A stretch of DNA of 64,000 nucleotides from an uncultured Bacteroidota bacterium (GCA_963783435.1 CAWANQ010000004.1:148560-212559); one strand, 5' to 3'; counted from the stretch's first letter, positions 2,158-59,961 are shown. Program-made: numbers and translations. The notes: a model not told the origin generated them from the sequence alone.

Positions 2158-2178
2158 AGTTGTCCATTAAGAGATTGA

Positions 2179-4358: not shown

Positions 4359-4489
4359 ACTGGCAAGATTAATTACTTATTTTCTAAAAGTAAGAAAGCT
4401 TATTAATCCTTCCAAAGCAGAACGCTTGAAAATTTGTTGAATCAGAATAGTAAAAAAAAAATGAAATGAAAGAAAAATCAAGCAGAAAA

Positions 4490-4509
4490 CATCCTTAAAA
4501 AGAAGGATG
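4490..4509 (-). terminator. Candidate intrinsic terminator or attenuator hairpin between the beta-helix gene and the LamG gene
   Basis: CATCCTT-aaaaag-AAGGATG (7-bp stem). On the minus strand it is followed by TTTTCTGCTTGATTTTTC. It lies 37 nt downstream of the stop at 4546. Confidence 0.35.
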
Positions 4510-4545
4510 GATTATATACTGAATTTGTGTTTTATTGATTGATCG

Positions 4546-6867
4546 TTATCTGAATCTCTCAGGAAAATCATCCCTGAGTCCCGCATCCCTTACATCAATT
4601 GACTTTATTCCCATTTTTAGTGCTGGTGATTCAGGCTTCAACCTGAAATCCCCATTTTCCCAATCAACAAACATAGGATCGGCATACAGGCCATTTCTGT
4701 CATGTCCCTCTGCTCTTAATCCGCTCAACGGGATGTCTTTACTACCTGGCGCTTCAGCATTGAAATAGAGGTTTTGATCTACGGTGCATTTATCAAAGTA
4801 CTCGTATAATCCAGGGGTCTCATCTCCATGACCTTCCCGGAGCTCAAATACATAGAATTGTTGCTTCGCTCCCGGTTCGAAAAGTATGTTGCGTTCGATA
4901 CGGGTTCCATCGACATAACGTCGGCCAACAATCATATATTGATTGGGTGTAACATCCACGATAAAATTATTGATCCAATAATTCTCATGTTTTACAAGAA
5001 CTCCGCAAAAGGTATTGGTCCTGAATATTACATTCTCTTCAATTAGGGTTCCCCGCTGATAGTCGTCAATACGAATGGCACTATGCAACATTGGGTTGTA
5101 GATATCATGTAGATAATTGCGGCGGATGATGTTCCCTTCTCCTGCCCCGCTGATATTTAACGCAGATCCATCTCCCATAATTTCTCCAACCCTGTATATC
5201 TCGTTGTATTCAACAATGTTATTACGGGTATGCAAATAAGGAGTGATCTCGGGCCATTCCCACACATCTACTCTGCCCCAGGGCATGCTGGCAGCTCTCT
5301 CTGTACAGGCTGCAGAGTCTTCTATTTCATACCAGCGAATGGAAGGGGCATTTTCCCGGAAGGGGGGATGTGCATGTTTCAGGAATTCATCATCAGGATC
5401 AAAGAATTGAGGACGAACTCCTGTCACACAGATTGCTTTTCGTGGCATATTGTGAATGGTATTATGCGCCACATGGTTTTCGCCACTTTGCCACAAAACA
5501 ATACCATGCGAGTGCCAATAGATCTCTCCGTTATGATGAATATGATTATTCACCACTTCGTTCTTCTTATTCACATCTTTTATGCCCGGGCCATATCCGA
5601 TTAAGAGGATTCCCGCACCACCCAGGTGATTGATTTCATTGTTATAGATTCTGTTATTCTGACAGTGCAGATCCAGGCGGATCGCGGAACCCCCACTATT
5701 ATAAAATTTACAGGCTTCAACCACACAGTTTTCAGCTCCCCGAAAACGCAGAAGTGCATCTGCTTTATCGATCATCTCCCAATCGTGCTGTATGGACTTA
5801 TCATCGATTTTTACCTTCCCCCTGTCGGCCTGGGTAAAGCCCAGGTCCTTGAAAACAATCCCTCGCACCGGTTTATCTTCAGGGCCTTCGAAGTCTATGG
5901 TCCCTTCAACACGGATGAGTTCCGTAAGGCATGGTGCAAAAATGTTATCACCTGGTTGGTCATCATAAGGCCAGAGGTAAAGTTTGCCTTTTTTACTGTC
6001 TAAGACCCATTCTCCCGGGCAATCAAGTGCTTCGAGGGTGTTCTCAACCCAAACAGCTGGTTCGCCCTCGGAGATTGCCTGGGGCCTTTGGTTTGTAATG
6101 GTATGTAATTTCCCATAGTTATGGATATCCGTTCTGGCCACTAAATTCTCCTCGTCAACAGACTCAAGAGAAAGTATCGTGATTGTAAAGTGCAATCGGC
6201 GCACTATAATTTCAACATCTTTCAGATTTGACCAATTTTTAATGGTGCCTTCTTCAAATTTAAATTCCCTGTGAGGATTCTTGATGGATTTATGCTCATC
6301 ATCTACTACATAGGCCTGGGATTGTGATCTGGGCAGTCTTTTGTCATGATCATATAAAGTACGAAATGGGCCGAGCCCTTCAGGAACGTCCGCTACCCAA
6401 ACTTTTGCCTTGGCCATCTCTGGTAATTCACTCGTTGATTCCTGGTATAGCTTCCAACCTCTCTCACTATATTGCTCCCATCCTTCAATTTTTACACCTG
6501 AACTAAAGATTGGTTCCTCACCCGGATAAGCAGCATATGTAATTGTATGACCTAGTGCGGCAGCATCCTTCAGGCCAAAAACAACTGTCTCTTTTAAAAA
6601 GTACCTTCCGCCTCTTATTAAAACAGAAATATCCCCTTTGCCTTCATCTTGCTTGAGTTTTAGCACTTCATCCCTGGCTTTTTCTAAAGTGGCAAATGGA
6701 CCATCGGAATTATCCTTATTGGGACTCTCGAGCTTACCCGACCAGGTATCATTCCCGTTTGTTGCAACATAAAAATCTGCATTCACTTCACTGCCTTCAA
6801 CAGGAGTATTTGCTTTCAGACTGAATAGTAAAATGAAGCAAGTAGATACTATTATTGTGTTTTTCAT
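4546..6867 (-). CDS. Secreted right-handed parallel beta-helix protein (pectate-lyase fold; candidate polysaccharide lyase/hydrolase)
   Basis: 773 aa with a signal peptide. N-terminal FYVATNGNDTWSGK..GPFATLEKA is typical of beta-helix enzymes. Repeated PbH1-like turns are present (NNRIYNNEINHLGGAGILL, VVNNHIHHNG, RNNIVEYNEIY, IIRRNYLHDI). Confidence 0.85.
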   Translation of the reverse strand: MKNTIIVSTCFILLFSLKANTPVEGSEVNADFYVATNGNDTWSGKLESPNKDNSDGPFATLEKARDEVLKLKQDEGKGDISVLIRGGRYFLKETVVFGLKDAAALGHTITYAAYPGEEPIFSSGVKIEGWEQYSERGWKLYQESTSELPEMAKAKVWVADVPEGLGPFRTLYDHDKRLPRSQSQAYVVDDEHKSIKNPHREFKFEEGTIKNWSNLKDVEIIVRRLHFTITILSLESVDEENLVARTDIHNYGKLHTITNQRPQAISEGEPAVWVENTLEALDCPGEWVLDSKKGKLYLWPYDDQPGDNIFAPCLTELIRVEGTIDFEGPEDKPVRGIVFKDLGFTQADRGKVKIDDKSIQHDWEMIDKADALLRFRGAENCVVEACKFYNSGGSAIRLDLHCQNNRIYNNEINHLGGAGILLIGYGPGIKDVNKKNEVVNNHIHHNGEIYWHSHGIVLWQSGENHVAHNTIHNMPRKAICVTGVRPQFFDPDDEFLKHAHPPFRENAPSIRWYEIEDSAACTERAASMPWGRVDVWEWPEITPYLHTRNNIVEYNEIYRVGEIMGDGSALNISGAGEGNIIRRNYLHDIYNPMLHSAIRIDDYQRGTLIEENVIFRTNTFCGVLVKHENYWINNFIVDVTPNQYMIVGRRYVDGTRIERNILFEPGAKQQFYVFELREGHGDETPGLYEYFDKCTVDQNLYFNAEAPGSKDIPLSGLRAEGHDRNGLYADPMFVDWENGDFRLKPESPALKMGIKSIDVRDAGLRDDFPERFR

Positions 6868-6943
6868 AATATATTGTTAATAATTGTAAGAGCTAAGCTC
6901 TGAACAAATCTATCCCCAATTTCGCCTTTTCATAATGCAATAT

Positions 6944-6972
6944 CTTCCGGAAAAAAGGGAAAGTCTTCCGAA
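6944..6972 (-). promoter_or_regulatory. Phased direct-repeat operator, site 1 (CTTCCGGAA-N12-CTTCCGAA, 21-bp phase)
   Basis: TTCCGGAA at 6945 and TTCCGAA at 6966, exactly 21 bp apart, 78 nt upstream of the start at 6867. Same architecture and orientation as sites at 16499, 21958 and 22111. Confidence 0.55.
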
Positions 6973-11717: not shown

Positions 11718-13337
11718 TTACTCTTCATCTTCTTCCTCATATATTTCAATAAATTTCTGGTCAAGTGCATCTGAGTCTCCATATTTCTCTCTTAACTCCA
11801 GAAGACGCACTTTCAAATCGAGGACAGTTTTAGCATGTCCCGGATCATCATAAATATTTATCATCTCATGAGGATCATTCTCCCTGTCGTATAACTCCCA
11901 TTCGTCAATATCGTAATAAAAATGGGCCAGCTTGTATCTCTTTGTAACAATCCCGTAATGCCGTTTAACTTCATGTGCGCCAGGATACTCATAATAGTGG
12001 TAGTAGACCTCTTCCCGTGACCAGCTGGCTGTGTCACCTTTTAATAAAGGGACTATGCTCTCTCCTTGCATATCCCCGGGAAATTCAATTCCTGCTGCTT
12101 CCAGGAGTGTTTGCGCAAAGTCAAGGTTTTGAACCATTTCATCCGAGGTGCTTTCTTCCTTCACAACTCCAGGCCATCTGATTATCAAAGGTGTCTTAAA
12201 TGACTCCTCGTAGATAAACCGCTTATCAAACCAGCCGTGTTCACCCAGGAAGAAGCCCTGATCAGAGGTGTAAACTATGATTGTATTTTCGGCCAAGCCA
12301 TTTTTATCCAGATAATCCAGCAATCGGCCTACATTATCATCCACTGAAGAGATACAGGCCAGATAGTCCTGCATATACCGCTGGTATTTCCATTTCAGTT
12401 TCTCTTCATCGGTCATGAATGGCCAATTCTCCTTGAAGAACTGACTAATTGAATCGATCGTAGGTTTATACAGGCGTTTCTGCTCTTCAGTTACCCGGTC
12501 GGAAAAAGGTTCACTAAAGGAATCCCACCATTCCTCGATAAACGGAGTAACATCCTCCATCTCTTCCATCGTCTCAGGCCATATTTTGTGATCATGACGG
12601 TAAAACATGTCCCTGAAAATGGTCATCGTATTCGCCTTGGCTGCAGTACCTCTGTTTGCATAATCATCATAGAGGTTGGCAGGTTCAGGAAAGGATTTGC
12701 GGCTAAATTCCCTGAATTTATCATGCCTTGGCCACCAGGGTCGGTGGGGTGCTTTGTGCAGGTAAAACAGTAAAAAGGGTTTATCTTCTTCCCGCCTGTG
12801 ATTTAACCAGTCCAGCGACAGGTCTGTGATAATATCAGTAGCATATCCTGTTATCGTCGTATCACCCCTATTGGTGTTGAAATCAGGGTTAATATAAAAT
12901 CCTTGATCGGGTAGGATTTTAAATTCATCAATACCCTTCGGATTATTCCCAAAATGCAATTTCCCAAACATGGCCGTCTGGTATCCTGCTTCTTGAAAGA
13001 TCATGGGAAATGTTGTTTGACTTGTATCAAACAGGGTATGATCATTATCGATTTTTCCATGAACATGGGCATGCTTGCCGGTAAGTATGGTTGCCCGCGA
13101 AGGACCACATATGGAATTTGTAACGCAGGCATTGGTAAATAACATGCCCTCATGAGCAAGCCGATCAATATGCGGAGTTTGGATTAATCTGCTGCCATAT
13201 GCGCTAATCGCCTGGTAGGCATGATCATCGGTCATTATAAAAATAATGTTGGGCCGGTTAGGATCTTCAGGAATCCGGCTGTTGGTATGGCATGAAACCA
13301 TGAATAACCCGATCGTAAAAATGAAAATTGCTTTCAT
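11718..13337 (-). CDS. S1 sulfatase (Cys-type)
   Basis: NIIFIMTDDH, FGly motif ICGPSRATILTGK, YTSDQGFFLGEHG. The start is moved to the internal ATG (MKAIFIFTIGLFMVSC), which gives a lipoprotein signal and removes the overlap with the upstream gene. Confidence 0.9.
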   Translation of the reverse strand: MKAIFIFTIGLFMVSCHTNSRIPEDPNRPNIIFIMTDDHAYQAISAYGSRLIQTPHIDRLAHEGMLFTNACVTNSICGPSRATILTGKHAHVHGKIDNDHTLFDTSQTTFPMIFQEAGYQTAMFGKLHFGNNPKGIDEFKILPDQGFYINPDFNTNRGDTTITGYATDIITDLSLDWLNHRREEDKPFLLFYLHKAPHRPWWPRHDKFREFSRKSFPEPANLYDDYANRGTAAKANTMTIFRDMFYRHDHKIWPETMEEMEDVTPFIEEWWDSFSEPFSDRVTEEQKRLYKPTIDSISQFFKENWPFMTDEEKLKWKYQRYMQDYLACISSVDDNVGRLLDYLDKNGLAENTIIVYTSDQGFFLGEHGWFDKRFIYEESFKTPLIIRWPGVVKEESTSDEMVQNLDFAQTLLEAAGIEFPGDMQGESIVPLLKGDTASWSREEVYYHYYEYPGAHEVKRHYGIVTKRYKLAHFYYDIDEWELYDRENDPHEMINIYDDPGHAKTVLDLKVRLLELREKYGDSDALDQKFIEIYEEEDEE

Positions 13338-13374
13338 TATACTTACTTGTTTAATGATCGCCAAATCAGGCCTA

Positions 13375-16300
13375 CTAGCGTTTAACAACCTTTCTTTTGG
13401 CCGATTGCCCCCCGGTTTTTACTTCGACAATGTAAATACCATTCGGGAAATCACTCATACTTACCAAACCTGTCGGATTCTTATCGGTGAGCAGTAATTC
13501 ACCCACCATACTATAGATCCGGATCTTTTCAATCCCTTCGCTAGCTTCAACTCTGATTTGATCTGTTGCAGGATTAGGATAGATCAATACAGCGCTATTT
13601 CCTTTATTCTCTGAAACTGATGTGTAGTCGGGAATTGTGCCAACTGGTGCTAATTCTTCAGGCTCGAAACCAATTTTCTCAACGGTAATTACCGTTTTAT
13701 TAATACTGCTGATTTCATAACCTCCCGTTACCGGGTATGTAACCGAGTCTGAGCCGAAAGTGCCCTGAATGTAGTATTCAAAGTCATATCCGGGATCTGC
13801 CAATGAAGCCGTCATAACGTAGCTGCTGTTATTTACAGGAGTAAGTGATATTGAAGAAAATGGGCCTGATGCACCTATTTTACGATAGTACATAGTTGGA
13901 TTTGCGACGGTCCCATTACCCATAAAGATTACTTTCTGCACAAAGTTTTCATTCTCATTTATCTGGGTAATTTCAGGGTAAGCCCGTACTGCATTATCTG
14001 CTTCAAATGTCACATCACGTTCTGTAATATCATACTCTCCTTTAAATAATCTGTCCCAGGTAGACTGTTGTAATTGGGCAATAACACCAAGCTCTGAGAC
14101 ATTTCTTACGCGATTTATTTCATGTTCCATTACCTTGGCCCAGGTTTTTATTATACTATCTTTTCTGGCAGGTGTGCGATCTTCCGCTCTATAAAAATAT
14201 TCATGAACTACTAATTTACTTAACTCAAGCTGAGCTTGAAAAAAATGATACCAATACAGGTATCGATCTATATTTCCCGTTCCAACAATATCGTCTTTGT
14301 ATGAACAAAACTGGGTATATACATACATGGCGTCAATAAAGGTCGGGTCTGTATAGTCTACAATATCACCGTCGTCCAACCAAAATTCAGTAATTGAACT
14401 TGGAAGCCATCTCGCCACCTTTGGAATACCCCCTTTTAATCCTCTCCGTATTTGATGAGATTCTCCTAATCTGTCGGCCATGGCCAGAAGCGACCCTATC
14501 TCATCTGATCTCTCAGGACCAAAATTAGCCTTTGCCCAGTCCTGATAATGTTTAGTAATCCAATTTACAAAACTGGGATCCTGACTCTCCAGCGGAGCAT
14601 CCCACTTATCAAAAAAACGGTATTTTTCAGCTCCCTCTGCAATACTAAGTAAATCACCATCCACGGTAGCCTTGTTATCCCAGGATAATTTTGCGTGGGC
14701 CAAAGAGGCTGGGGCAATAGAATTAACACGCCAATGTTTGGCAACCAGTGCCTGTGTTCCGCCAGCTCTCAAACCGGCCCCTACTTCAAACCAAGCATCC
14801 ATAGCTCTTAACTGAGGTTGTACAAGTCCCCAGTCCTCTTCGTACCAAACAGAAGACCACCCTTCACGACCAGCATCGATAACCGGCTTAATTCCCTGAG
14901 CATCATCCCATAATGTTCCAAATGGAACATCTAAGGGCAAATCGTCGTGAAATTCCAGTGAAGACCCGTATCCGACACTTCCAACCCTCCAGCCAAAGGT
15001 GGCCATTTTGATTGGCGTTTCCATTTTAGTCATAACTTCATTACAGTACCTGTAATCATCCGCAACAGCCTCAATCGCTTCATCATTTGTTCGATCACCC
15101 CCATAGGTCATCGTTTCGAAAGTCCAAAGCCAGAAGTAGTCCAACGGATGGGTACGCGCAATTCGGGTAAACAGCCCTTCATACATTCTTTTTGCAAACA
15201 CTTCGTTGGTATATCCTCTTGAGGTAGGCAAGGTTAATCCATGCACCTCTTGTGCCCGGTTTTGCACATCAACAGGTGTATAGTGAACTCTGTCTTGATA
15301 AACCTCTCTGTTATGTTTTGGAAGAAAACCCATTGGAGCAGTACTGCCCAATGCTGTTTTTACACCCAGTTGTTTGGCATGTGTGAACGATTCTCTTAAT
15401 AATTCCCCCACTTTATTGAAATTTGCCGCTTTCTCAGCTGGAGTAAGCGGTAGTTTAAAACCAATAGCCTCAGATGCTGCCTCATCATATGGAAACAGTC
15501 TATCCGCTCCATTGGTGAAATCGCTTGTTTTTATGGGTTCATTACTCCATGAATGATTCGCCCGGAATGTACTGGCCCAATAAGATTCATAAGCCGCCTC
15601 TGGCTTTACAGTTCCATCACTATTGACATCATCTCTATGACCAACCCATAAATGTGGTTCCGGCCCTTCCTTTGAATAATTTATAAATTCACCGTCACCG
15701 TCTACTCCAAGCGGCCCATATTGGTCATATTCACCATATACATGTAATCCGAAGAAGTTAAAACCCATTTTGGCTTGCTGTGAAATAAATGATTTATAAT
15801 CATTTGTCTCCCAAAGATCCGGACCAGCTAGAAAATTATGAAAAGGAAGACAACCACGCAATTCAAACCAGGGTTGGGCTTTTTCATCGAAATTGCCAAT
15901 ATCCAGCGGGAAGGTCAATTTCTGATCAGGAATAACATCTCCTGCTAGATTAAAATGACAACCAATAAGTTCGGCAAACCGGTATGCTGCATTCAAGGTA
16001 GTCAGCGTATCAGCACCGACGAGTACCAGTACATTTCTACCGTCTTTATTAATTGATTTAATTATATACCCATTGCGCTTATCAGAAGCTGGAGCATCCA
16101 CATTCCCATAATCCTGTTTTAGCTCAGTAATAATCTCGCGGCTGTTTCCAGAAACTACGATAACATCTCCCTCTGGTAAACTATTATATGTGTCTGCAGT
16201 AGCGATATCCGGAGCTGTTCCGGTACGAAGAAAGATATACCTCCTTAGCTCTTTGGCAGCCTGTAATTCAGTCTTTGATCCATCGCCCGGATAAACAATT

Positions 16301-16395
16301 GTTTGGGCTCCTAATTGAGAGGCAGAGAAGAGAATGATCATAACCAGCGAAAACTGTAATGCATGTATGGTCGGGAGGTGATGGTTCTTTTTCAT
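13375..16395 (-). CDS. Large secreted glycoside-hydrolase-like protein of unrecognised family, with a T9SS CTD
   Basis: 1006 aa with a signal peptide. The N-terminal module (LNAAYRFAELIGCHFNLAGDVIPDQ) resembles N-terminal domains of GH20/GH67/GH115-type enzymes. The central region has a TIM-barrel-like character (MGFNFFGLHVYGEYD, DYFWLWTFE, WYEEDWG). The C-terminus LIYPNPATDQIRVE..GIYIVEVK is a T9SS CTD. Confidence 0.8.
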   Translation of the reverse strand: MKKNHHLPTIHALQFSLVMIILFSASQLGAQTIVYPGDGSKTELQAAKELRRYIFLRTGTAPDIATADTYNSLPEGDVIVVSGNSREIITELKQDYGNVDAPASDKRNGYIIKSINKDGRNVLVLVGADTLTTLNAAYRFAELIGCHFNLAGDVIPDQKLTFPLDIGNFDEKAQPWFELRGCLPFHNFLAGPDLWETNDYKSFISQQAKMGFNFFGLHVYGEYDQYGPLGVDGDGEFINYSKEGPEPHLWVGHRDDVNSDGTVKPEAAYESYWASTFRANHSWSNEPIKTSDFTNGADRLFPYDEAASEAIGFKLPLTPAEKAANFNKVGELLRESFTHAKQLGVKTALGSTAPMGFLPKHNREVYQDRVHYTPVDVQNRAQEVHGLTLPTSRGYTNEVFAKRMYEGLFTRIARTHPLDYFWLWTFETMTYGGDRTNDEAIEAVADDYRYCNEVMTKMETPIKMATFGWRVGSVGYGSSLEFHDDLPLDVPFGTLWDDAQGIKPVIDAGREGWSSVWYEEDWGLVQPQLRAMDAWFEVGAGLRAGGTQALVAKHWRVNSIAPASLAHAKLSWDNKATVDGDLLSIAEGAEKYRFFDKWDAPLESQDPSFVNWITKHYQDWAKANFGPERSDEIGSLLAMADRLGESHQIRRGLKGGIPKVARWLPSSITEFWLDDGDIVDYTDPTFIDAMYVYTQFCSYKDDIVGTGNIDRYLYWYHFFQAQLELSKLVVHEYFYRAEDRTPARKDSIIKTWAKVMEHEINRVRNVSELGVIAQLQQSTWDRLFKGEYDITERDVTFEADNAVRAYPEITQINENENFVQKVIFMGNGTVANPTMYYRKIGASGPFSSISLTPVNNSSYVMTASLADPGYDFEYYIQGTFGSDSVTYPVTGGYEISSINKTVITVEKIGFEPEELAPVGTIPDYTSVSENKGNSAVLIYPNPATDQIRVEASEGIEKIRIYSMVGELLLTDKNPTGLVSMSDFPNGIYIVEVKTGGQSAKRKVVKR

Positions 16396-16498
16396 ATTGC
16401 CTTAATTTAGATAAGAAAAATTAAATCAGCTACGTGGACTTTTTGATTTATACCACACCATAAATTTAATTTTGATCCCTTGCTAATTGCTGAACTAT

Positions 16499-16527
16499 TT
16501 TCCGGAATAACAGGAAATCCTTCCGAA
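16499..16527 (-). promoter_or_regulatory. Phased direct-repeat operator, site 2
   Basis: TTCCGGAA at 16500 and TTCCGAA at 16521 (21-bp phase), 105 nt upstream of the start at 16395. Confidence 0.55.
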
Positions 16528-19119: not shown

Positions 19120-21855
19120 TCAGAAGTCGACATTCTCAACAGTAATGACGGTTTTATTAATGTTATCGCTATCATTTCCACCCGTTACCGGATAGCTTAC
19201 CGTTTCTCCGTCTATAGAACCTTGTATGTAATATTCAAAATCATAACCCGGATTATCCAGATTGGATTTTCATGACATGCAGTACTGCTTTCAACAGAAG
19301 TAAGCGCTGAGCTTGAGAACGAGCCGTCAGTTCCAATCTCCCGATAATACATAACCGGATTTGTTATATTGCCATTACCCAGGAATATTACATTTTGTTC
19401 AAAGGACTCATCTTCATAGATCTGCGATATTTCAGGCATGGCTCTAACTGCACTTTCCCCCTCATAGGAAGTATTCAAATCAGTAATTCCATAGCGATCT
19501 CTGCATATATTATCCCATGTAGCCTGCTGTAATTGAAGGATTACTCCTAATTCTGATATATTTCTTACGCGTTGTATTTCATGTTTCATAATTCTCCCCC
19601 AACAAGCTATCAGGCTGTCTTTCTCTACGCTGGTCATCCCATCTTTCTGCAGCTGCGCACGATGACAGGCGAATCTGCCCATTTCTATTTGTGATTGAAA
19701 AAAATGATACCAATACATATAGCGGTCTTTGTTCCCGGTACCCACAATGTCATTCTTATAGGAGCAGAACTGATTATATATATCAAAAGCTTCAGCAAAC
19801 TTGCCCGTAAATGTCGTTGGTTCACCTCTGTCCGGATCGCTTGCTCTTATTACACTTGGTGCGGGTTCCCATGTTGAGATTGTTGGTATGGCATTTGGTA
19901 CTCCTGCCATAGGAGGTTTTGGCTCTCCAGCTCTATCCATTGAAGCTAATAGGTTTCCAATCTCAACGGACTTTTCCGGTCCAAAATTAGTTTTTGCCCA
20001 ATTCTGATAAAATTCCGTTATCCATTTTACATACACTGAGTCTTGTTCCTCGGTATTTCTCTGGAAGATATCTACTTCTGGAAAATGCTTGTTCTTCATC
20101 GCAATTCATTTGAAACAATCTCCCTGTTTTCCCAAACTAATTGTGCATGAGCTGCAGATGCAGGTGCTACTGAGTTAATACGCCAATGTTTGGCTATCAG
20201 AGCCTGCACACCTCCGATATCTAATCCAGCTCCTACTTCATTCCAGATTGTTGTAACTCTAAACTGAGGTTGGATCATACCCCAATCTTCTTCATACCAG
20301 CACGAAGACCATGCCTCACGACCCGCATCAATAACCGGCTTCAATCCTTCAGCCCTGTCCCAGAGTGTGCCAAATGGAACATCCAAAGGTAAATCATCAT
20401 GAAACTCTAATGGGCCCTTTCCTTTTGGTTGTTTAGTTCCCACAGTTCCCACTCTCCATCCAAATGTGGCTAATTTGAAGGGAGTATTCATCTCATTCAT
20501 TACTTCATTGCAATATCTGTAATCATCTGCAACGGCTTCAATTTGCTGTTTTGAGAGTCTGTGACCGAGATAGGTCCAGGTTTCGTAGGTCCAAAGCCAG
20601 AAATAATCCAGAGGGTGAGTCTTCATTATACGTGTAAATACTCCCTCATATAGTGCCTTTGTGAAAGCCTCGTTTACTGAACCTCTTTCTGTTGGTAAGG
20701 TAAAGCCATGAACATCTCTCATTCTGCTTTGTACATCCGGTGGGCAAGAGTGGATCCAGTCTGTTTCAACTAAGTGCTCTGGAATTACCTGGCTCAAAGC
20801 CCATCGGAGCTTCTGTCCCAATGGCCGTTTTAACACCCAGCTGGCGGGCATGTGAAAACGCATCCTTAAACATAAATCCCACATTGTTGAAGTTTGCTGC
20901 TTTTTCTGAAGGAGTTTCGGGCTCTTTTGAACCTATTGCTTCGGAAGCAACATAATCATTGACAAATAGTTTGTCGGCCCCACTGGTAAATTCCTTTGTT
21001 GTTACAGGAGCATACCCCCATATGCCTTCATTAGGATTACCCGCATAGAAATCACCCTTACGAAAAGAACTTGCCCAGTATGATTTATAAGCAGCCTCTT
21101 CTTTAACCGTGCCATCATCATTCAAATCATTTTTATGACCTATCCAGATGGAGGGTTCCGGTCCTTCCTGTGAGCCTTTAAATCCATTCTGGTTGTAATA
21201 ATGGAGACCAAAGAAATTAAAACCCATCTTCGCCTGTTGCGTAATAAATGATTTATAATCTTCAGTATTCCACAAATCAGGTCCGGTTGGAAAATCATGA
21301 AAGGGCAGACTACCTCGCAATTCAAACAAGGGTTGTGATTTCTCATCATACCCGCTCAAGGGAATTGGATAGCTTAACTTTTGATCAGGAATAACATCTC
21401 CTGCCAGATTAAAATGACAGCCTAATAATTCTGCAAATCTATAGGCCGCATTCAGGGTGGTTATTGTATCCGCTCCTGTAATGACCAGAATATCTCTTCC
21501 ATCATTTTTATTCACCGATTTTATCAGATAGCCCTTCCTGTTATCACTATCCGGAGCATCTACATTTCCGTATTCCTGCTTAAGTTCTGTAATAATATCC
21601 CGACTATCTTCCGAAACGATGATTACATCACCTTCAGGTAAACTGGCATATTGGTCTAGCAGTAGCGATCTCCGGAGCAGTGCCTGTGCGGAGGAAAATG
21701 TATCTTCTTACTTCTTTTGCTGCCTGGATTTCGGTGATCGATCCATCGCCAGGATAAAGCACCGTTTGGGCATTTAAATCACATGCTGAGATGAAAATAA
21801 ATACCAGAAACAACTTTATTCCATTAAATGCTGAGATCCGGTTGCTTGTTTTCAT
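19120..21855 (-). pseudogene. Pseudogenised tandem paralog of the 1006-aa hydrolase-like gene
   Basis: ORF fragments 21634..21942, 20766..21515, 20096..20884 and 19212..20099, plus an unannotated tail, are colinear with ORF 13375..16395. Examples: AQTVLYPGDGS../AQTIVYPGDGS..; TTLNAAYRFAELLGCHFNLAGDVIPDQKL; THPLDYFWLWTYE; VRNISELGVILQLQQATWD. They sit in at least 4 different frames. The first shift is an extra A at ~21655-21660 (GCT-A-GAC). The gene ends VITVENVDF* at 19120 and lacks the CTD. Confidence 0.85.
19345..19423. repeat. 79-bp perfect direct repeat, right copy (inside the pseudogene)
   Basis: Identical to 16611..16689. Here it encodes IYEDESFEQNVIFLGNGNITNPVMYY of the pseudogene. 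Confidence 0.95.
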
Positions 21856-21957
21856 TGCTTTGGTCTTTACCTTTGTTAAAGCACTTTCAATTTTAAAAGA
21901 TTGGCTTGTAGCTGTATATAAAAATAGACCCAATTTCTTCAATAAGACTGAATTATC

Positions 21958-21986
21958 TTCCGGATTAATAGGAAATACTTCCAGAA
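21958..21986 (-). promoter_or_regulatory. Phased direct-repeat operator, site 3
   Basis: TTCCGGAT at 21958 and TTCCAGAA at 21979 (21-bp phase), ~103 nt upstream of the pseudogene start at 21855. Confidence 0.5.
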
Positions 21987-22110
21987 TTGCAGTTTGTGAA
22001 ATTCCAATCCTTAGGCCCTGATTCTATTCTTAACGGGAGACAATCAAGCTCATTACCAAATTGGTTTTTATTGATTTCTACCCATTAGGAATGCTATAAT
22101 AACTCCATTA

Positions 22111-22138
22111 TCCGGAAGCTTCTCCCCTTTTTACGGAA
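22111..22138 (+). promoter_or_regulatory. Phased direct-repeat operator, site 4
   Basis: TCCGGAAG at 22111 and TACGGAAG at 22132 (21-bp phase), ending 51 nt upstream of the ATG at 22189. The orientation relative to its gene is the same as for sites 1-3. Confidence 0.5.
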
Positions 22139-22188
22139 GATAATTCTGTGCTAAGGAAGGATTAAGATTTATATTTACCTGTATTAAT

Positions 22189-23499
22189 ATGCTGATACTG
22201 AAAAACAACAAGACACTTCTTATTTCTGTAGTGACAATTCAGGCTTTTCTAACACTTGCCTGCACCAGGGCAAATCCAGGCATCGAATTGGATCCCCTGG
22301 TAATTGAGGGGCTCAAAGAACTCGGTTCCATTGAAGGATTTAAACCCTATGGGGCTAATCCGGTCTTGGCCACCGGACCCGAAGGATCTTTCGATGCAGG
22401 AGCACTGGGTTCTATGACTGTAGTTCTCGTTGACAGTGTTTTTCATCTATACTACGAAACCTGGGGAGTGCGGTCCGATGCCGAATGGGATGCGGATGAA
22501 TATGAATCTTTGACCGTGGGACATGCAATATCCCACGATGCTATAAACTGGAACAAAGATCCCGAAAATCCTGTTCTTGAAAGCGGTGGAGAAGCAGACT
22601 TTGACTACACGGGCGTATGGGATCCCTACGTCTTGTATGAGGATGGGGTCTTTAAAATGTGGTATGGGGGAGGCGGTGGCAGCCAGCCTAATCTGGGATG
22701 GGCCTATGCCACCTCTACCGATGGTACACATTTCGATAAACAGGGATTGATAGGGATCGGGAATCCCACCGGAGTGGAAGATTGTCATGTGGTTTTCGAT
22801 ACTGAATCGGGCCTTTATTATATGTACTACTGGTATGGATGGGATGAACCGGAAGGGCTCTATCTGGTCACTTCACCCACCGAGACAGGATTCAATTTCA
22901 ATGAAAAAATCCCTGTCAGGATCAAGGGAGACGATTCCTACATGAAAAAATTCGGACATGTGTTACGTGACAAAATGGGTTGGCACATGTTCTACTCCAA
23001 TTTTGTTCAACCCCATTGCCCGAACAGCATCACCCGCTATGCATATTCAACAGACGGGATCCACTGGGAGGCAAAGAATAAAAGATTGGTAAAGGGGCAT
23101 GATTCGGAAGTTTTAAAAGTCAGGGATGACCTCTTCCTGATGTTCTCCAGTCCCCGGAATGGCTTCGACAGGGTGGACTGTGACATTCGCCTTGCCATTT
23201 ATAGTGGAACACTGGAAGACCTTGCCAATAAAGCACCATTCTTTGAACTGCCTCAGGAAAGCAGCTTGTCAGGAAAAAAAATCACGATCAAAATACGGGA
23301 TGAGGAAGCCCTTGCTTTTCACTTCAAAGATGAGGGAGAAGTGGTTCTCTCGGAGGATACCAACAAAGAGGATCCATATACTTTTAACGCGCTATTTATT
23401 CATAAGGGGGAGCAGGTAATAATTAGCGGAGAAGGGATCAATCTGTCCGGGACCTATAATGGTAAAACACTTATACTGCGCGACAATGATACTGATTAA
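22189..23499 (+). CDS. Beta-propeller-fold glycoside-hydrolase-like lipoprotein (GH43/GH117/GH130-like clan)
   Basis: 436 aa with a lipobox (LTLAC). Repeated blade-like motifs FHLYYETWG, VWDPYVLYEDGVFKMWYGG, WAYATSTDGTHF, YYMYYWYGW, YAYSTDGIHW. Family assignment is uncertain. Confidence 0.6.
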   Translation: MLILKNNKTLLISVVTIQAFLTLACTRANPGIELDPLVIEGLKELGSIEGFKPYGANPVLATGPEGSFDAGALGSMTVVLVDSVFHLYYETWGVRSDAEWDADEYESLTVGHAISHDAINWNKDPENPVLESGGEADFDYTGVWDPYVLYEDGVFKMWYGGGGGSQPNLGWAYATSTDGTHFDKQGLIGIGNPTGVEDCHVVFDTESGLYYMYYWYGWDEPEGLYLVTSPTETGFNFNEKIPVRIKGDDSYMKKFGHVLRDKMGWHMFYSNFVQPHCPNSITRYAYSTDGIHWEAKNKRLVKGHDSEVLKVRDDLFLMFSSPRNGFDRVDCDIRLAIYSGTLEDLANKAPFFELPQESSLSGKKITIKIRDEEALAFHFKDEGEVVLSEDTNKEDPYTFNALFIHKGEQVIISGEGINLSGTYNGKTLILRDNDTD

Positions 23500-23531
23500 C
23501 CATAGAATTTAATCCAAACTTTAATCGGAAA

Positions 23532-25691
23532 ATGAAAAAACTAAGTTTTGTATTGCTGGCCTGTTTGACAGGGATAAGTACGGTTTTTGCACAGAAACCT
23601 TTAGCTCACTGGACCTTTGATGATATTAGAGTAGAGCGGAAAACTGTTGAAATGGTCCGGGGAGAAACCTATGTGCCCAAAGAAGTATTTGCCTACGTAA
23701 AGGAATCCGTCTCCGGAAAGGAAAATGAACTGCATGGTGTATACTATAAGGCAGTGCCTGGTGTGGTTGGAAATGCAGCCCTGCTGGATGGATATACAGC
23801 CTACCTTGAATTACAGATGGGCCAGGGTAAAAACGATCAATCATCGGGGGACCACATACCCCACATTACAGAAGATTTCACCATTGAAACATGGGTCGCA
23901 CTGGGAGCCTACCCGAAAAATATATGTCCGATCCTTGATAACCGAAGAGATGAAGCAGACGGGTACTACAATGGTTACAGCATGGAAATGGATGCCATGG
24001 GGCGCCTTGTACTGAAGGTTGCCACTGAAGGCAAATATGAAATAGCCATGTCGCATGAGACCATCCCTTTGAACGAGTGGACGCATCTGGCTGCCAGCTA
24101 CTCAAAAGAAAAGGGGCGCCTGGCAGTCTATGTAAATGGAGAACTAAAGGATGAAACCTTTGCAAGAGAGGCTTTCAAGCCAACTGCACGAGACTGGCAT
24201 TTTACATCTTTGCTCATCGGCAAGAGCAGGGCAGCCATGCGGCCCTACGGAACCATCAGGCCCGAAGGTACAGAGACGTCCTTCACTTTTATTGACGGCA
24301 TCCTGGATGAACTGAAACTTTATGAAGCAGCACTTGGTGATAAGCAGGTTGCTGAGATTTACAAGAGTCAGCGAATAACTGACGAACCTGAACTTCCCAA
24401 ACGTATTCTCCCATCGGGGCCCCAGTCACCAGGAACATTCCGGGCGGTGAATACACGCCTGAAGTATTACGAAGGGTGGGATGCCCCCTGGGCGATCCAT
24501 GACAATGCAGATATCGTTGTACAATTTGATGAAACAGACTGCAAATTCGTATTCTGGCATGGAACAAGCTATATTCCCTCCTGGGTGACGGAGAATAATA
24601 TCTGGTTCAACAATGGATTTAATGAGGGCTGGAACGAACATGGAAGCTGTGAGCCCATGTCTGATAAAAAGGCGAAATATTCCAGTGTAAAGATCGTTGA
24701 AAGCAATGAGGCACGCGTGGTGGTCCAGTGGCGTTACGCGCTGGTGGATGTAACAGGTATATTCGCTTTTGAAGATCCGGTTACCGGATGGGGTGACTGG
24801 ACCAACGAGACTTTTACTATTTACCCGGATATGGTTGGAGTGCGTGAAGACCTCCTGCTGAGCAATGCGCCCAATGCAGCCCATGAATGGCAGGAGAGCA
24901 TGATGGTCCTTGCCCCGGGTCAACGCCCCTCCGAGGTTTTGAACTTTGAGGCACTTTCCCTGGCAAATATCAAGGGTGAATCAAAGACCTATTCCTGGGA
25001 GCATGAAATACCGCCCCATCTCCCGCCCTATCCTGAAGAGCCGGTGGTGCAGGTGGTCAATACAAAATCGGAATACCATCCTTTCTCAGCGCTTAGACCG
25101 CAGGATGATCCTGGGATCGATATTTACAGCGGAGAGATCCGCAGAGATGTAGATGTTTTTCCCTGGTGGAACCACTGGCCCGTGGCCCCTCGGCCAACCG
25201 ATGGACGCTATGCAATGTTCGAGGACCGTGCAGCGCATGCATCGGTGTCACATTGGCTCTGGGACCCGTACAAGGTAACGGACCGGTCCATGACGAAATT
25301 GATGCTGAACGGAATGACCAATAAACCGGTTGAAGAACTCATTCCTGTAGTAAAAGCCTGGTCAAATCCTGCCGATATCATCCTGGTTGAGAAAAGTCAC
25401 AGTGCAAGCTATACACCCGAAGAAAAGGCCTATACCATCAATCTTTCCGGTGAAGTATCCAGCCTGGATTTCACACTAAAGGGCAGCGAAGATTCACCAA
25501 TCGTGAATCCGGCCTTCGTAATTGAAAACTGGGGCAATGCAGGCCTTGAAATCATGGTGAATGGAGAAAAAATAGAGCGGGGAAAGAATTTCAGATATGG
25601 ATTGCGGGAGTCGCTCGACAATCGTGACCTGATCGTTTGGCTGCGCATGGAGTCAGAAGAGGAAGGCAAATTCTCATTGCAGAAGAAATAG
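23532..25691 (+). CDS. LamG domain fused to the recurrent uncharacterised domain (paralog P2, the fused archetype)
   Basis: 719 aa with a signal peptide. Residues ~20-280 are LamG-like (FTIETWV, VYVNGELK, IDGILDELKLY). Residues ~290-719 carry the family blocks ARVVVQWRYA, GDWTNETFTIYPD, PWWNHWPVAPRPTDGRY, NPAFVIENWG, VNGEKIERGKNFRYG. Confidence 0.85.
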   Translation: MKKLSFVLLACLTGISTVFAQKPLAHWTFDDIRVERKTVEMVRGETYVPKEVFAYVKESVSGKENELHGVYYKAVPGVVGNAALLDGYTAYLELQMGQGKNDQSSGDHIPHITEDFTIETWVALGAYPKNICPILDNRRDEADGYYNGYSMEMDAMGRLVLKVATEGKYEIAMSHETIPLNEWTHLAASYSKEKGRLAVYVNGELKDETFAREAFKPTARDWHFTSLLIGKSRAAMRPYGTIRPEGTETSFTFIDGILDELKLYEAALGDKQVAEIYKSQRITDEPELPKRILPSGPQSPGTFRAVNTRLKYYEGWDAPWAIHDNADIVVQFDETDCKFVFWHGTSYIPSWVTENNIWFNNGFNEGWNEHGSCEPMSDKKAKYSSVKIVESNEARVVVQWRYALVDVTGIFAFEDPVTGWGDWTNETFTIYPDMVGVREDLLLSNAPNAAHEWQESMMVLAPGQRPSEVLNFEALSLANIKGESKTYSWEHEIPPHLPPYPEEPVVQVVNTKSEYHPFSALRPQDDPGIDIYSGEIRRDVDVFPWWNHWPVAPRPTDGRYAMFEDRAAHASVSHWLWDPYKVTDRSMTKLMLNGMTNKPVEELIPVVKAWSNPADIILVEKSHSASYTPEEKAYTINLSGEVSSLDFTLKGSEDSPIVNPAFVIENWGNAGLEIMVNGEKIERGKNFRYGLRESLDNRDLIVWLRMESEEEGKFSLQKK

Positions 25692-25710
25692 CAAGAAGGA
25701 GTATAAAACA

Positions 25711-26400
25711 ATGATAAAGAAGATTTTTATTGCAGCACTTATGTTTGTGTTAGTAGGCAATGCAAATGCCCAAAACGATCTAAGAGATTCTCGTGATGGC
25801 AATATCTATGGTGTAGTAAAAATTGGCGAACAGGTATGGATGGCGGAAAACCTGAAATATCTACCAGGGGTAGCAGGTCCCGGAACGGGTTCAGAAACAA
25901 AACCGTATTATTATGTGTATGGCTATAACGGAACAAGTGTAAGTGACGCCAAAGCCAATGCAAATTATGCAACCTACGGCGTATTGTACAATTGGCCTGC
26001 AGCTATGAATGAAACTGCAAGCAGCACAGCCAACCCAAGCCCTGTACAGGGGGTATGTCCGAGCGGCTGGCATTTACCAAGCGATGCAGAATGGACAGCG
26101 CTTACAGATCATTTAGGCAGGCGTGTTGCCGGTGGTAAACTAAAAGAAACAGGCACGAATCACTGGGACAGCCCCAATAAAGGAGCAAGCAACAAAACCG
26201 GCTTTACAGCCCTTCCGGGTGGCTACCGTAATGAGGATGGTACTTTCGTCAGTATGGGTGAAGACTTTGACTGCTGGAGTGCTTCTGAGTACAATACCAA
26301 TAACGCCTGGTTCCGGAATATACACTTCAATGACAATGATGTGGGCAGGAACAATTACAATAAGGCAACAGGCTTTTATATTCGCTGTGTGAGGGATTAA
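25711..26400 (+). CDS. Fibrobacter-succinogenes-major-paralogous-domain (FISUMP-type) secreted protein
   Basis: 229 aa with a signal peptide. Hallmark string DSRDGNIYGVVKIGEQVWMAENLKY...YGVLYNW..CPSGWHLPSDAEWTAL...GGKLKETGTNHWDSPN..GFTALPGGYR...IRCVRD. Confidence 0.85.
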   Translation: MIKKIFIAALMFVLVGNANAQNDLRDSRDGNIYGVVKIGEQVWMAENLKYLPGVAGPGTGSETKPYYYVYGYNGTSVSDAKANANYATYGVLYNWPAAMNETASSTANPSPVQGVCPSGWHLPSDAEWTALTDHLGRRVAGGKLKETGTNHWDSPNKGASNKTGFTALPGGYRNEDGTFVSMGEDFDCWSASEYNTNNAWFRNIHFNDNDVGRNNYNKATGFYIRCVRD

Positions 26401-26422
26401 TTAAAAACCAACAAGGACTGTC

Positions 26423-27964
26423 ATGAAAAAGTTTTTTTATCTATTGATTCTGGTGATCCTGGTGGTGAATTGCACCACCAAAACCGGAGAAAAACCAGCA
26501 TATCTCGATGGGGCTTACGAACCCGAATGGAGCTCACTTGCGAACCACGAAACACCCCAGTGGTTCGAAGATGCGGTACTGGGATTTTATTGGCACTGGG
26601 GCCCGTATTCCGTGCCCGCTTTTGGTTGCTGGGGAGGAAGGAACATGTACATGCCCGATGGGGGAACTTCAGAGAATTGGGGACACATAGAAGATCAATA
26701 CGCAAATACCTACGACTATGTGAAGAAGGTATACGGTGATCCCGGCCTGGAATGGGGATACAAAGACTTTATCCCCATGTTCAAAGCCGAGAATTGGGAT
26801 CCTGACGCCTGGGCAGAATTGTTTAAAATGGCCGGGGCAGATTTTGCAGGTCCGGTGGCCATTCATCATGATGGTTTTGCCATGTGGGCCAGCGAGCACC
26901 ACGAATACAATTCTGGCGATATGGGCCCTAAGCGGGATATCACCGGGGAGATTCTTGAGGCCGTCCGTAAACAGGACATGAAAACCTTTGCATCCTTTCA
27001 TTATTACACAAATTGGTTCTACTTCAATCCCGGACGCATGCTCTGTCCGTTCAAAACCGATGTGAATGATCCGAAGTATTCAGGATTGTACGGGCCGGTG
27101 AGGGATATTAAAGATCCATGGCAAAACGAACCCATTTCTGAAGCATTCCAGGAGGAATGGTACAAATGTGTAGCAGAAGTCATCGACAAATACAGTCCCG
27201 ATCAGCTCTGGTTTGAGATCGGCTTCAGCGATCCGGATGCCATTGGCGAGAACTATGTCCAAGCAAGCCTTGCACACTACTTCAATACGGCTGAGGCACA
27301 AAACAAGGAAGTGGTGGTTACGCGCAAAGATGATGACCTTCCGCTGAATTGTTCGGTCCTGGATATTGAAGCTGGTGAACTCGATTCACCCCGCGAAGTA
27401 GTCTGGCAAACCGATATCGCCCTGGGCCATAATCACTCCTGGGCCTATTCACCCGATGCCATTTGCCGACCCGTGAACATGATCATAGATGAAATCGTGG
27501 AGAGAAAGAGTAAGAATGGAGTAACCCTATATAGCCTGGCACCACTCGCTGACGGAACCCTCCCACCCTCCCAGGTTGAAGGACTAAAGGAACTGGGAAA
27601 GTGGATGGCCATCAATAAGGAGGCATTGCATGGCGCTAAACCCCCTGTTTTTACTGATGGTGCACCCGATATTTGGAAATCTGGTACAATCCGATTCCTC
27701 GCGAAAGGGGATTTTATTTATGCTATAGAATTGGGCAATGAGATCATGGAAGTGGAAGATGCTAAGCTTTATAGAGAAAGTATCGAACCAAAAGCGCCTT
27801 TTAAGATTCCCGGGCTCAAACCTTCTGAAGGATCAGAGATTGTAATGCTGGGTAGCCAAGAGGCACTTCCCTGGCACATGGAGGAAGAGCTCCTGGTCAT
27901 CGAGAACATACCCGATCCGCTGCCCTGTGAGCACGCCTGGAGCTTCAGGGTGCGCTACAAGTAA
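26423..27964 (+). CDS. GH29 alpha-L-fucosidase
   Basis: 513 aa with a signal peptide. GH29 blocks FYWHWGPYSVPAFG, WAELFKMAGADFAGPVAIHHDGFAMWAS, GPKRDI, SPDQLWFE. Confidence 0.9.
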   Translation: MKKFFYLLILVILVVNCTTKTGEKPAYLDGAYEPEWSSLANHETPQWFEDAVLGFYWHWGPYSVPAFGCWGGRNMYMPDGGTSENWGHIEDQYANTYDYVKKVYGDPGLEWGYKDFIPMFKAENWDPDAWAELFKMAGADFAGPVAIHHDGFAMWASEHHEYNSGDMGPKRDITGEILEAVRKQDMKTFASFHYYTNWFYFNPGRMLCPFKTDVNDPKYSGLYGPVRDIKDPWQNEPISEAFQEEWYKCVAEVIDKYSPDQLWFEIGFSDPDAIGENYVQASLAHYFNTAEAQNKEVVVTRKDDDLPLNCSVLDIEAGELDSPREVVWQTDIALGHNHSWAYSPDAICRPVNMIIDEIVERKSKNGVTLYSLAPLADGTLPPSQVEGLKELGKWMAINKEALHGAKPPVFTDGAPDIWKSGTIRFLAKGDFIYAIELGNEIMEVEDAKLYRESIEPKAPFKIPGLKPSEGSEIVMLGSQEALPWHMEEELLVIENIPDPLPCEHAWSFRVRYK

Positions 27965-27994
27965 GCCCGAATACATTAGATCAAGCAAGAGGAT

Positions 27995-29452
27995 ATGAAA
28001 ACAAATCTGCGTTTACTACTTCACCCCTTATTGATATGCATTTTGCTGGCATCGTGCAGTAGAAATAAGGGGGAAGAGGCCAGGGTAACTGAAACCTTGC
28101 TGCATCCTGCAGACTCATTCTATGCAGTCGGGCTTACAGATACTCTGGTTCAGTACATGGAACCTGGCTTTAAGGTCCCGCGCGAAGTGAGTAAGATAGC
28201 CTGTGAAGTGTATTTCGACCTGGTCCCTACAAAAATGCGATTCAGCATGCCCTGCTATCCCTGCATGGTCACAGAGAACAACATTCACTATTCCAGCGGT
28301 TGGACCGAAACCTATGATCCAAAAGCCTCCAGTTCCTGTGAGATTCTATGGGATAATGAGGCCCGGACAGCCAGGATGTGGATCGAAAGTCAGAACCCCG
28401 CACGGGTTGTTGTGCGCTTCAGGGCAGCTATAGCCGATCCGGACGGGTATATCGGACATTCTTACATTCCCAGCGGATCACCCTATGGAATGGGCGACTG
28501 GACAGACGAATGGTACTATATATACCCGGACGGTATGCACACCCGCCACGTAAGGATCTATACAGGTCTGGCCGGGCAGAGCCTGACAGTAACCGATGAA
28601 CAATTCGAAAGGATGGGACCCATCAGGGAAATTCCTCCAACGGTAGTGCATGAATTCCATGAAGAATTCATCTTCGGCCAGGATGGACATATCCCGGGAG
28701 ACGATATTGACCTTGAAGCCCTGACATTTATAAAAATGGACGGCAGCACACGGACCTTTTCATTTGATCCCTACCCCAGTGATTTTGGAGATTTCACCAT
28801 GGCCAATATCATGGTGGTTAATACCCGATCGGACTACAAACCCTACACGATCTTCATCCCCTATGGCCTGGAGAATCAGCCCTACCCTCTTGAAGGCAAA
28901 GCGCCTCATGTTTTCCAGACCTGGCCCAGCGATCCAGGAGATAAGGGATACTCCGTTTCACTCGGGCATACCCTGAACTGGTGGCATTACAGGCGCAATG
29001 ACACAATCCTGGAACAGGTATACCTTTCAGGCATGATACACGCTGAAGATCCGGGAAAGGAATTGCTGCCACTGGCAAAGTCCTGGCTGAACTATCCCAG
29101 GCTACTCATGGAAGGTCATGAAGTATCGTATACCCAGGCATCCTATGACCAGGCACAGCGGGCATATATTATTCCGGGAGAAGAAAATGGTCCACGGAAG
29201 ATAGCTCTGCAACTGGGGTTCCCGGAAAAATTCGAAGAGGAAGTATTAATCCCGGTCAATATCGTGAATCCAGCCTTCATTGTTCCCGATTGGGGAAGGT
29301 CTGACCTGGCAATTAAGGTCAATGGCAGGGAACTCAAGCAGGGCAAAGAATACCGTAAAGGCTACGAAGAAGGAAAAATGGGTACAGACCTTGTCATCTG
29401 GCTGAATTACAAAGCAAATAGGAAAACCTCGATCGAAATAATACCCATGTAA
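27995..29452 (+). CDS. Uncharacterised conserved-domain lipoprotein (paralog P3 of the recurrent family, no LamG)
   Basis: 485 aa with a lipobox (LLASC). Family blocks ARVVVRFRAA, GDWTDEWYYIYPDGMHTRH, NPAFIVPDWG, VNGRELKQGKEYRKGY. Confidence 0.8.
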   Translation: MKTNLRLLLHPLLICILLASCSRNKGEEARVTETLLHPADSFYAVGLTDTLVQYMEPGFKVPREVSKIACEVYFDLVPTKMRFSMPCYPCMVTENNIHYSSGWTETYDPKASSSCEILWDNEARTARMWIESQNPARVVVRFRAAIADPDGYIGHSYIPSGSPYGMGDWTDEWYYIYPDGMHTRHVRIYTGLAGQSLTVTDEQFERMGPIREIPPTVVHEFHEEFIFGQDGHIPGDDIDLEALTFIKMDGSTRTFSFDPYPSDFGDFTMANIMVVNTRSDYKPYTIFIPYGLENQPYPLEGKAPHVFQTWPSDPGDKGYSVSLGHTLNWWHYRRNDTILEQVYLSGMIHAEDPGKELLPLAKSWLNYPRLLMEGHEVSYTQASYDQAQRAYIIPGEENGPRKIALQLGFPEKFEEEVLIPVNIVNPAFIVPDWGRSDLAIKVNGRELKQGKEYRKGYEEGKMGTDLVIWLNYKANRKTSIEIIPM

Positions 29453-30756: not shown

Positions 30757-30779
30757 AACTTTCTAAACTTATGAAAGTT
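30757..30779. promoter_or_regulatory. Candidate ROK-regulator operator (23-bp palindrome)
   Basis: AACTTTC-taaacttat-GAAAGTT lies in the 95-bp divergent region between the ROK regulator (start 30739) and the GH29 gene (start 30841). Confidence 0.4.
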
Positions 30780-30840
30780 ATCATATATTTGCTAAAATAA
30801 GAATTAAATCCTTTAAAAGAAGCTATTAATCCCATTGATT

Positions 30841-59880: not shown

Positions 59881-59885
59881 TATTA

Positions 59886-59901
59886 GCTAAATGGTTTTAG
59901 C
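59886..59901. promoter_or_regulatory. Candidate LacI-family operator O1 (GCTAAA-TGGT-TTTAGC)
   Basis: A 16-bp palindrome with perfect 6-bp arms, 6 nt upstream of the TBDR start codon. Confidence 0.5.
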
Positions 59902-59961
59902 AATATTGGCAAATAAAAATTCCTTAGTGGATCAACTTTTTCATTTTTCTTTGACACAAGC

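Follow-up and report, generated by a model that had tools for sequence, protein, structure and literature searches.

A tandem CGGAAG site with 21-bp spacing, a predicted HTCS activator site upstream of four transcription units of an uncultured Bacteroidota bacterium

Four tandem sites, S1 to S4, lie upstream of four predicted transcription units in a 64-kb stretch of DNA from an uncultured Bacteroidota bacterium (the "window", meaning the whole stretch analysed). Judged from sequence and gene context, they are probably class-II-like activator sites of a dimeric HTCS, whose AraC-type domains would occupy the two tandem units. Each site combines two copies of a bipartite unit in direct repeat with a Bacteroidota promoter box at a nearly constant distance, and the whole arrangement is kept in related genomes.

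In the orientation of the downstream gene, 4/4 sites in the window conform to YGGAAG-N15-CGGAAR. A preliminary description of this DNA had reported four sites with half-sites 21 bp apart and no further copy. The four are present where it placed them, within 1-2 nt, the hexamers start exactly 21 bp apart in S1, S2, S3, and S4, and both pattern and weight-matrix searches of the window return only these (Table 1). The pattern TTCCGGA-N14-TTCCRRA, with at most one mismatch, yields four matches in the 64-kb window versus 0.11 expected, a count reached by none of 100 shuffles. With a weight matrix of 38 columns derived from the sites themselves, S1-S4 are the sole window matches, at 48-56 bits, and the top score in shuffled windows (n=20) is 10 bits. 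Isolated single units are few elsewhere in the window, none adjoins S1-S4, and they were treated as chance. All four sites are intergenic and each is oriented toward its downstream gene, as had been noticed; the interval from the end of the proximal hexamer to the start codon is 76, 103, 101, and 49 nt for S1 to S4, respectively. One correction concerns the start of the S3 gene, which is ATG 21855; the TTG ORF listed from 21942 overruns the promoter. Rfam and tRNA searches of the 64-kb window gave no matches.

Table 1. Tandem sites, -7 boxes, and predicted target genes in the window.
Feature	Coordinates	Strand	Details
S1	6937..6970	-	distal unit CGGAAGACTTTCC, 6970-6958; proximal unit CGGAAGATATTGC, 6949-6937
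S1 -7 box	6905..6912	-	TAGATTTG; 31 nt past proximal hexamer, 37 nt before ATG 6867
S1 target operon (predicted)	1396..6867	-	Pfam; operon from same-strand genes with short gaps
GH141-like beta-helix protein	4546-6867	-	S1 operon; Pfam
LamG protein	3579-4358	-	S1 operon; Pfam
473-aa protein	2179-3600	-	S1 operon; no Pfam match
SDR	1396-2157	-	S1 operon; Pfam
S2	16492..16525	-	distal unit CGGAAGGATTTCC, 16525-16513; proximal unit CGGAAAATAGTTC, 16504-16492
S2 -7 box	16461..16468	-	TAAATTTA; 30 nt past proximal hexamer
S2 target (predicted)	11718..16395	-	1006-aa secreted protein, then overlapping sulfatase
1006-aa secreted protein, T9SS C-terminal domain	13375-16395	-	catalytic Pfam match absent
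Sulfatase	11718-13388	-	overlaps the 1006-aa gene
S3	21950..21983	-	distal unit TGGAAGTATTTCC, 21983-21971; proximal unit CGGAAGATAATTC, 21962-21950
S3 -7 box	21919..21926	-	TATTTTTA; 30 nt past proximal hexamer
S3 target, broken paralog of the 1006-aa gene	19212..21855	-	translations match the 1006-aa protein; ATG 21855
S4	22113..22146	+	distal unit CGGAAGCTTCTCC, 22113-22125; proximal unit CGGAAGATAATTC, 22134-22146
S4 -7 box	22170..22177	+	TATATTTA; 30 nt past proximal hexamer, 11 nt before ATG 22189
S4 target operon (predicted)	22189..29452	+	same gene order after the site in L002

The anatomy of the repeat was derived from an alignment of 14 non-redundant sites, the four of the window and 10 from related metagenome/MAG loci. 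The repeat unit is a 13-bp bipartite element, YGGAAG-N-T-NN-T-N-C. Positions 1-6 form box A (CGGAAG), common to both units, and T11 and C13 (box B) are invariant in both units at 14/14 sites. T8 is invariant in the proximal unit but is found in only half of the distal units. The two sub-boxes of a unit are separated by approximately one helical turn (about 10 bp). Throughout the alignment, both units lie on the same strand, head-to-tail, at a spacing of exactly 21 bp (14/14 sites). The spacer core noticed at first sight (GGAAA/GGGAA, or TTTCC/TTCCC) is real: it belongs to the distal unit, as its second sub-box, and corresponds to the invariant T11 and C13. A bipartite unit is as expected for an AraC domain with its two HTH motifs, and we infer that boxes A and B would each be contacted by one of them. 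An AraC-type monomer contacts two successive major grooves, as in the MarA-DNA structure (1BL0).

A Bacteroidota -7 box, TAnnTTTG/A, begins 30-31 nt past the proximal hexamer at all 14 sites; TAnnTTTG is the -7 promoter consensus of this phylum (PMC7366714). A looser composite, consisting of the unit, 23-24 nt, and TAnnTT, occurs four times in the window against an expectation of 0.06 per 64 kb. A generic sigma-70 promoter scan is uninformative for Bacteroidota. From the alignment, the second sub-box of the proximal unit would sit about where a -33 element lies. The site is thus directly upstream of a primary-sigma promoter, which is the geometry of an activator site. The sites had been termed operators; the idea of a bound site is retained, but not the repressor sense of the word, since sites located upstream of the core promoter are better explained by an activator. 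One feature counts against the activator model: the short gap between the -7 box and the ATG of the S4 gene (11 nt) implies a very short 5’ leader.

ECF promoters typically display a GGAA-containing -35 element and a spacer of ~16 nt, a point in favor of reading the two hexamers as the -35 and -10 elements of an alternative, ECF-type sigma promoter. Furthermore, ECF sigma/anti-sigma pairs control many Bacteroidota glycan loci (PMC3878776). We nevertheless consider this reading very unlikely. Both elements are one sequence in direct repeat, a misfit for two different sigma domains, and the primary-sigma -7 box fixed downstream of every site is left unexplained. Neither the window nor the related loci contain a sigma or anti-sigma gene. 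Finally, the divergent sites of the related loci L002/L070 share a palindromic distal box, which fits protein binding sites and not -35 elements.

In Proteobacteria, AraC/XylS activator sites (AraC I1-I2, XylS at Pm, RhaS) are 21-bp direct repeats, the proximal one abutting or overlapping the upstream promoter element. S1-S4 resemble them in both respects. AraC/XylS promoters, however, are of the sigma-70 -35/-10 type, whereas those of S1-S4 are of the Bacteroidota -33/-7 type, and AraC/XylS regulators are soluble, ligand-binding proteins, whereas the candidate here is a membrane HTCS.

Among the window ORFs of at least 100 aa, Pfam detects no AraC, response-regulator, LytTR, or sigma domain. 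The earlier statement that AraC and HTCS proteins are not encoded in the window holds for every one of these ORFs, although ROK-type and LacI-type regulators are present. S1-S4 might be conceived as operators of the ROK protein (29501-30739), whose gene adjoins the end of the S4 operon, or of the LacI protein (59998-61014), both genes being in the window. ROK and LacI operators, however, are typically palindromic and usually recur at the regulator's own promoter, whereas S1-S4 are direct repeats; their position upstream of the core promoter also fits activation over repression. In comparative regulon reconstruction, palindromic models were used to search for the sites of both families (PMC3878776). 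Upstream of the ROK gene itself lies a perfect palindrome of another sequence, and the CGGAAG unit is missing there. With direct repeats on one side and this different palindrome on the other, both proteins were rejected as the cognate factor, and such a role is extremely improbable. The palindrome itself, AACTTTC-N9-GAAAGTT, spans 23 bp (30757-30779) in the 95-bp gap between the ROK gene (29501-30739, minus strand) and a GH29 fucosidase gene (30835-32658, plus strand). No second good copy is found in the 64-kb window, and the palindrome is likely the ROK operator.

Sites orthologous to S4 are found upstream of orthologs of the 436-aa protein in L002/L070 (74% protein identity), which originate from a White Oak River-type sediment metagenome, as well as in L076 and L090 (81% over a fragment). 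In these same loci, a second site, on the opposite strand and orthologous to S3, precedes the ortholog of the 1006-aa gene and reproduces the divergent S3/S4 layout. A four-way alignment of the S4 promoter (L002, L076, L090, and the window) is conserved across the block that begins with the distal unit and ends with the -7 box, and becomes unalignable upstream of the distal unit. S1 has counterparts upstream of the GH141-like orthologs of L006 (>90% protein identity) and L070, in which substitutions fall in the spacer and the flanks and none affects the hexamers or the -7 box. The phylogenetic footprinting that had been proposed for orthologous promoters thereby finds the site boxes kept in at least four related genomes (loci L002, L006, L070, L076, and L090) and the upstream flanks diverged. 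Divergent sites of the S3/S4 type are 125-227 bp apart in the window, L076, and L090. In L002 (2124-2183, equivalent to L070 11897-12022, L077, and L089), the divergent sites share one palindromic distal unit, TTCCGGAA, a layout with three CCGG cores phased at 21 bp.

Beyond orthologous promoters, a full site of the same geometry occurs in L045, a GTDB Bacteroidales MAG locus (identical to L085), before a non-homologous GH95 gene, and a second site is located on the other strand 200 bp from the first. This second site (L045 1-340, minus strand) precedes a 43-codon ORF with a lipoprotein-type signal peptide, followed by an apparent sulfatase-type C-terminal end; this is probably a deletion remnant. 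To the idea that the repeats are non-functional, either leftovers of promoter duplication or chance occurrences, we give next to no credence. S2 and S3 do precede paralogous genes, hence these two sites share ancestry, but S1, S4, and the GH95 site of L045 precede unrelated genes. Moreover, the flanks cannot be aligned while the unit boxes and the -7 box can, and the observed counts are never reached by shuffles.

The more distant orthologs of the 436-aa protein (L001, L003, L004, L091, and L092; 65-73% identity) have no site, and the motif is therefore clade-restricted. Scanning 185,579 species genomes with a strict pattern gave 47 loci, nearly all of them single matches in unrelated taxa. 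Except for L045, these matches were rejected, as none has a -7 box at the right distance; many, of Lachnospiraceae type, have near-identical flanks, which suggests conserved genes. The strict pattern was over-fitted, demanding YY before GGAA, and the genuine L006 site fails it. A scan of JGI metagenomes with the pattern and the -7 box gave 36 loci, with genuine sites in L070, L077, L082, L089, L076, and L085. Four others (L075, L081, L086, and L088), scoring at most 22 bits and located before unrelated genes, were rejected as chance. On the basis of the genome and JGI metagenome scans, the motif is confined to a narrow, uncultured Bacteroidales clade.

The cognate factor had been predicted to lie outside the window. 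Pursuit of the GH95 lead brought up an HTCS gene in L093, which is located with L090 on one 176-kb contig, ~25 kb from the orthologous sites of L090, in the gene order GH95-GH3-HTCS-SusC-like. This HTCS possesses Reg_prop/Y_Y_Y, HisKA, HATPase, and receiver domains, with the AraC HTH in the next frame because the assembly is frameshift-prone. In the gap between the HTCS gene and susC, CCAAAGATTTTAC and TGGAAGATTTTAC form a tandem repeat with a spacing of exactly 21 bp (17.7 bits), and a -7-like box, TAAATTGC, lies 30 nt past the second hexamer. In L094, from a second organism, an HTCS ortholog (66% identity) is part of the order GH3, HTCS, SusC, SusD, T9SS protein, and LamG protein. There, the composite signature appears twice, once between the HTCS gene and susC and once between susD and the gene that follows it, with degenerate distal units. 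Taken together, the two HTCS loci (41.5 kb) display three composite matches versus ~0.04 expected, all in intergenic gaps flanking susC/D, and ~70 kb of related loci devoid of the full tandem site (L001, L003, L004, L091, and L092) display none.

Close homologs of this HTCS are few, ~13 in a set of 5.8 billion proteins. Among them is P0256, assigned to a contig of 1,148,419 bp, the length also recorded for the contig of the window's own proteins, and thus apparently to the source contig of the window, beyond the 64 kb, in agreement with the predicted location of the factor. Both recognition helices are identical in P0256 and in the L093 and L094 proteins. P0256 is N-terminally short, with 1095 residues versus ~1460 for its orthologs, and aligns to these only from about their residue 378. 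Either the first propeller of the periplasmic sensor is largely absent or this part was called as a separate ORF; P0256 may be split or defective in the assembly. The family and the motif have a similarly narrow distribution and co-occur on two contigs. The AraC-type/HTCS-site reading, already put forward in the preliminary description, is thus supported by the architecture, the bipartite units, the orthologous promoters, and the HTCS linkage in relatives.

The HTCS-adjacent sites nevertheless score far below those of the window. They reach 17.7, 11.5, and 9.0 bits versus 27.7-56 bits for bona fide sites, and their second sub-box differs, as they end in TTACTC and not in TTCTG/TTCAG. They could therefore be of a related but distinct specificity, and a paralogous regulator could serve the window sites. 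In a broader form of this alternative, another tandem-binding regulator (LytTR-type, stand-alone AraC/XylS, or paralogous HTCS) acts at S1-S4, and the susC-linked HTCS is unrelated. We regard it as doubtful, though worth keeping in mind: a direct repeat with a 21-bp period just upstream of the core promoter cannot, by its architecture alone, separate these regulator families. LytTR sites (e.g., that of AgrA) are imperfect 9-10-bp direct repeats with a 12-13-bp spacer, hence, like S1-S4, repeats ~21 bp apart from centre to centre just upstream of a core promoter. Unlike them, the unit described here has two separated sub-boxes and recurs, in weaker form, in the susC promoter of an AraC-type HTCS. 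Also speaking for the HTCS are the three composite matches around susC/D and the shared distribution of family and motif; in addition, no LytTR or soluble AraC gene is detected by Pfam in the window or in the motif-bearing loci. More unlikely still, S1-S4 would be not HTCS targets but the recognition sequence of a regulator type new to Bacteroidota. That regulator would coordinate T9SS-secreted and lipoprotein enzymes acting on sulfated fucose-rich glycans, a dispersed set independent of susC/D, and S1-S4 would look like the HTCS-adjacent sites only because the two specificities are related or in competition.

Returning to HTCS control, the tandem architecture of ~21 bp matches what has already been reported in Bacteroides. 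All 16 predicted Bacteroides HTCS motifs (16/16) are direct repeats, on average ~21 bp apart (Ravcheev et al. 2013, PMC3878776). Footprints of BT4124 reveal tandem half-sites ~21 bp apart, and AlphaFold models of its DNA-binding domain with DNA place two recognition helices in adjacent major grooves (PMC13292587). S1-S4 share with these sites the tandem half-sites at ~21 bp, the location upstream of carbohydrate-active-enzyme operons, a half-site long enough for a two-HTH AraC domain, and, in relatives, a similar though weaker motif between the HTCS gene and susC. They differ by their host, an uncultured sediment-type Bacteroidales clade instead of gut Bacteroides, and by the absence of susC/D from the operons that follow the strongest sites. 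Such operons encode, among others, proteins with T9SS C-terminal domains or lipoprotein-type signal peptides, and are ~25 kb from the HTCS gene in the one relative allowing measurement. CGGAAG is only incidental in the supplementary alignments of PMC3878776, and a fixed distance of 30-31 nt to the -7 box was not found stated for published HTCS sites. SusR-like sites are also direct repeats upstream of Bacteroidota glycan-utilisation operons, but their predicted spacing is 67 or 77 bp (PMC3878776), compared to 21 bp here.

In the proposed mechanism, the two AraC-type domains of a dimeric regulator would fill the two tandem units head-to-tail. The proximal domain would abut the -33 region and recruit RNA polymerase to an otherwise weak promoter, in a class-II-like manner. 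The candidate is an HTCS with a periplasmic Reg_prop/Y_Y_Y sensor, a histidine kinase, a receiver, and an AraC HTH, P0256 being the ortholog on the contig of the window. The periplasmic sensor would respond to an oligosaccharide derived from the breakdown of a fucose-containing, probably sulfated, glycan. The HTCS would then switch on the GH141-like operon, the 1006-aa enzyme with its sulfatase, and the 436-aa/LamG/GH29 operon, and would also drive the promoter of the broken 1006-aa paralog. Binding, activation over repression, the inducer, and the choice of this HTCS over a paralog are what we infer here. BT4124, the one footprinted HTCS, is a repressor (PMC13292587), and tandem HTCS sites do not prove activation on their own.

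What is modestly new in this description is the exact, invariant spacing from the proximal unit to the -7 box, and the predicted reach of the regulon to operons without susC/D in an uncultured host clade. The 30-31-nt spacing may provide a simple model of how AraC-type HTCS outputs engage the Bacteroidota -33/-7 promoter. It is also suggested that the influence of one HTCS may extend outside the susC/D locus to which it belongs, as far as operons located tens of kilobases away. Current concepts of Bacteroidota glycan regulation are left unchanged. The outcome is a concrete predicted regulon for an uncultured Bacteroidales lineage degrading fucose-rich, probably sulfated, glycans, with a defined site, defined promoters, a candidate HTCS family, and target operons. 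Its targets include two families without a Pfam match: the 1006-aa enzyme, for which the catalytic match is missing, and the 473/485-aa paralogs.

The S4 operon comprises genes for a 436-aa GH43/GH130-like protein, a 719-aa LamG protein, a Fib_succ_major protein, a GH29 alpha-L-fucosidase, and a 485-aa protein. The latter (27995-29452, plus strand) and the 473-aa protein of the S1 operon are paralogs (26% identity, E = 4e-35) with a common WYYIYPDG stretch, and each gene shares its operon with a LamG-domain gene. They belong to an uncharacterised family, predicted from its genomic setting to be co-regulated with fucosidase-type enzymes. The reading frame of the S3 target is disrupted, leaving at least four fragments in different frames (21634-21942, 20766-21515, 20096-20884, and 19212-20099), through either recent pseudogenisation or assembly frameshifts; the S3 site and its -7 box are intact despite the broken gene. 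Pfam analysis of the window reveals 11 sulfatases, two GH29 fucosidases, and GH2, GH3, GH31, and GH141-like enzymes, as well as T9SS sorting domains, which point to Bacteroidota. This gene content, together with the GH95 target of L045, points to the breakdown of a fucose-containing and probably sulfated glycan as the theme of the regulon; fucoidan is a plausible assignment from gene content.

Two other regions of the window deserve mention. In 56809-61014, a LacI-family gene lies upstream of a TonB-dependent receptor gene without a SusD partner, followed by genes for a beta-helix T9SS protein, an MFS transporter, a ROK kinase, and a SIS-domain protein. This region, which lacks a CGGAAG site, resembles an independent regulatory unit. 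Furthermore, the gene of a 1092-aa beta-helix protein with a T9SS C-terminal domain (53447-56725, minus strand) harbors an internal tandem duplication with a period of 1455 bp. Its copies are 94% identical over 300 nt (at 53751 and 55206), with identical 26-mers at 54861 and 56316.
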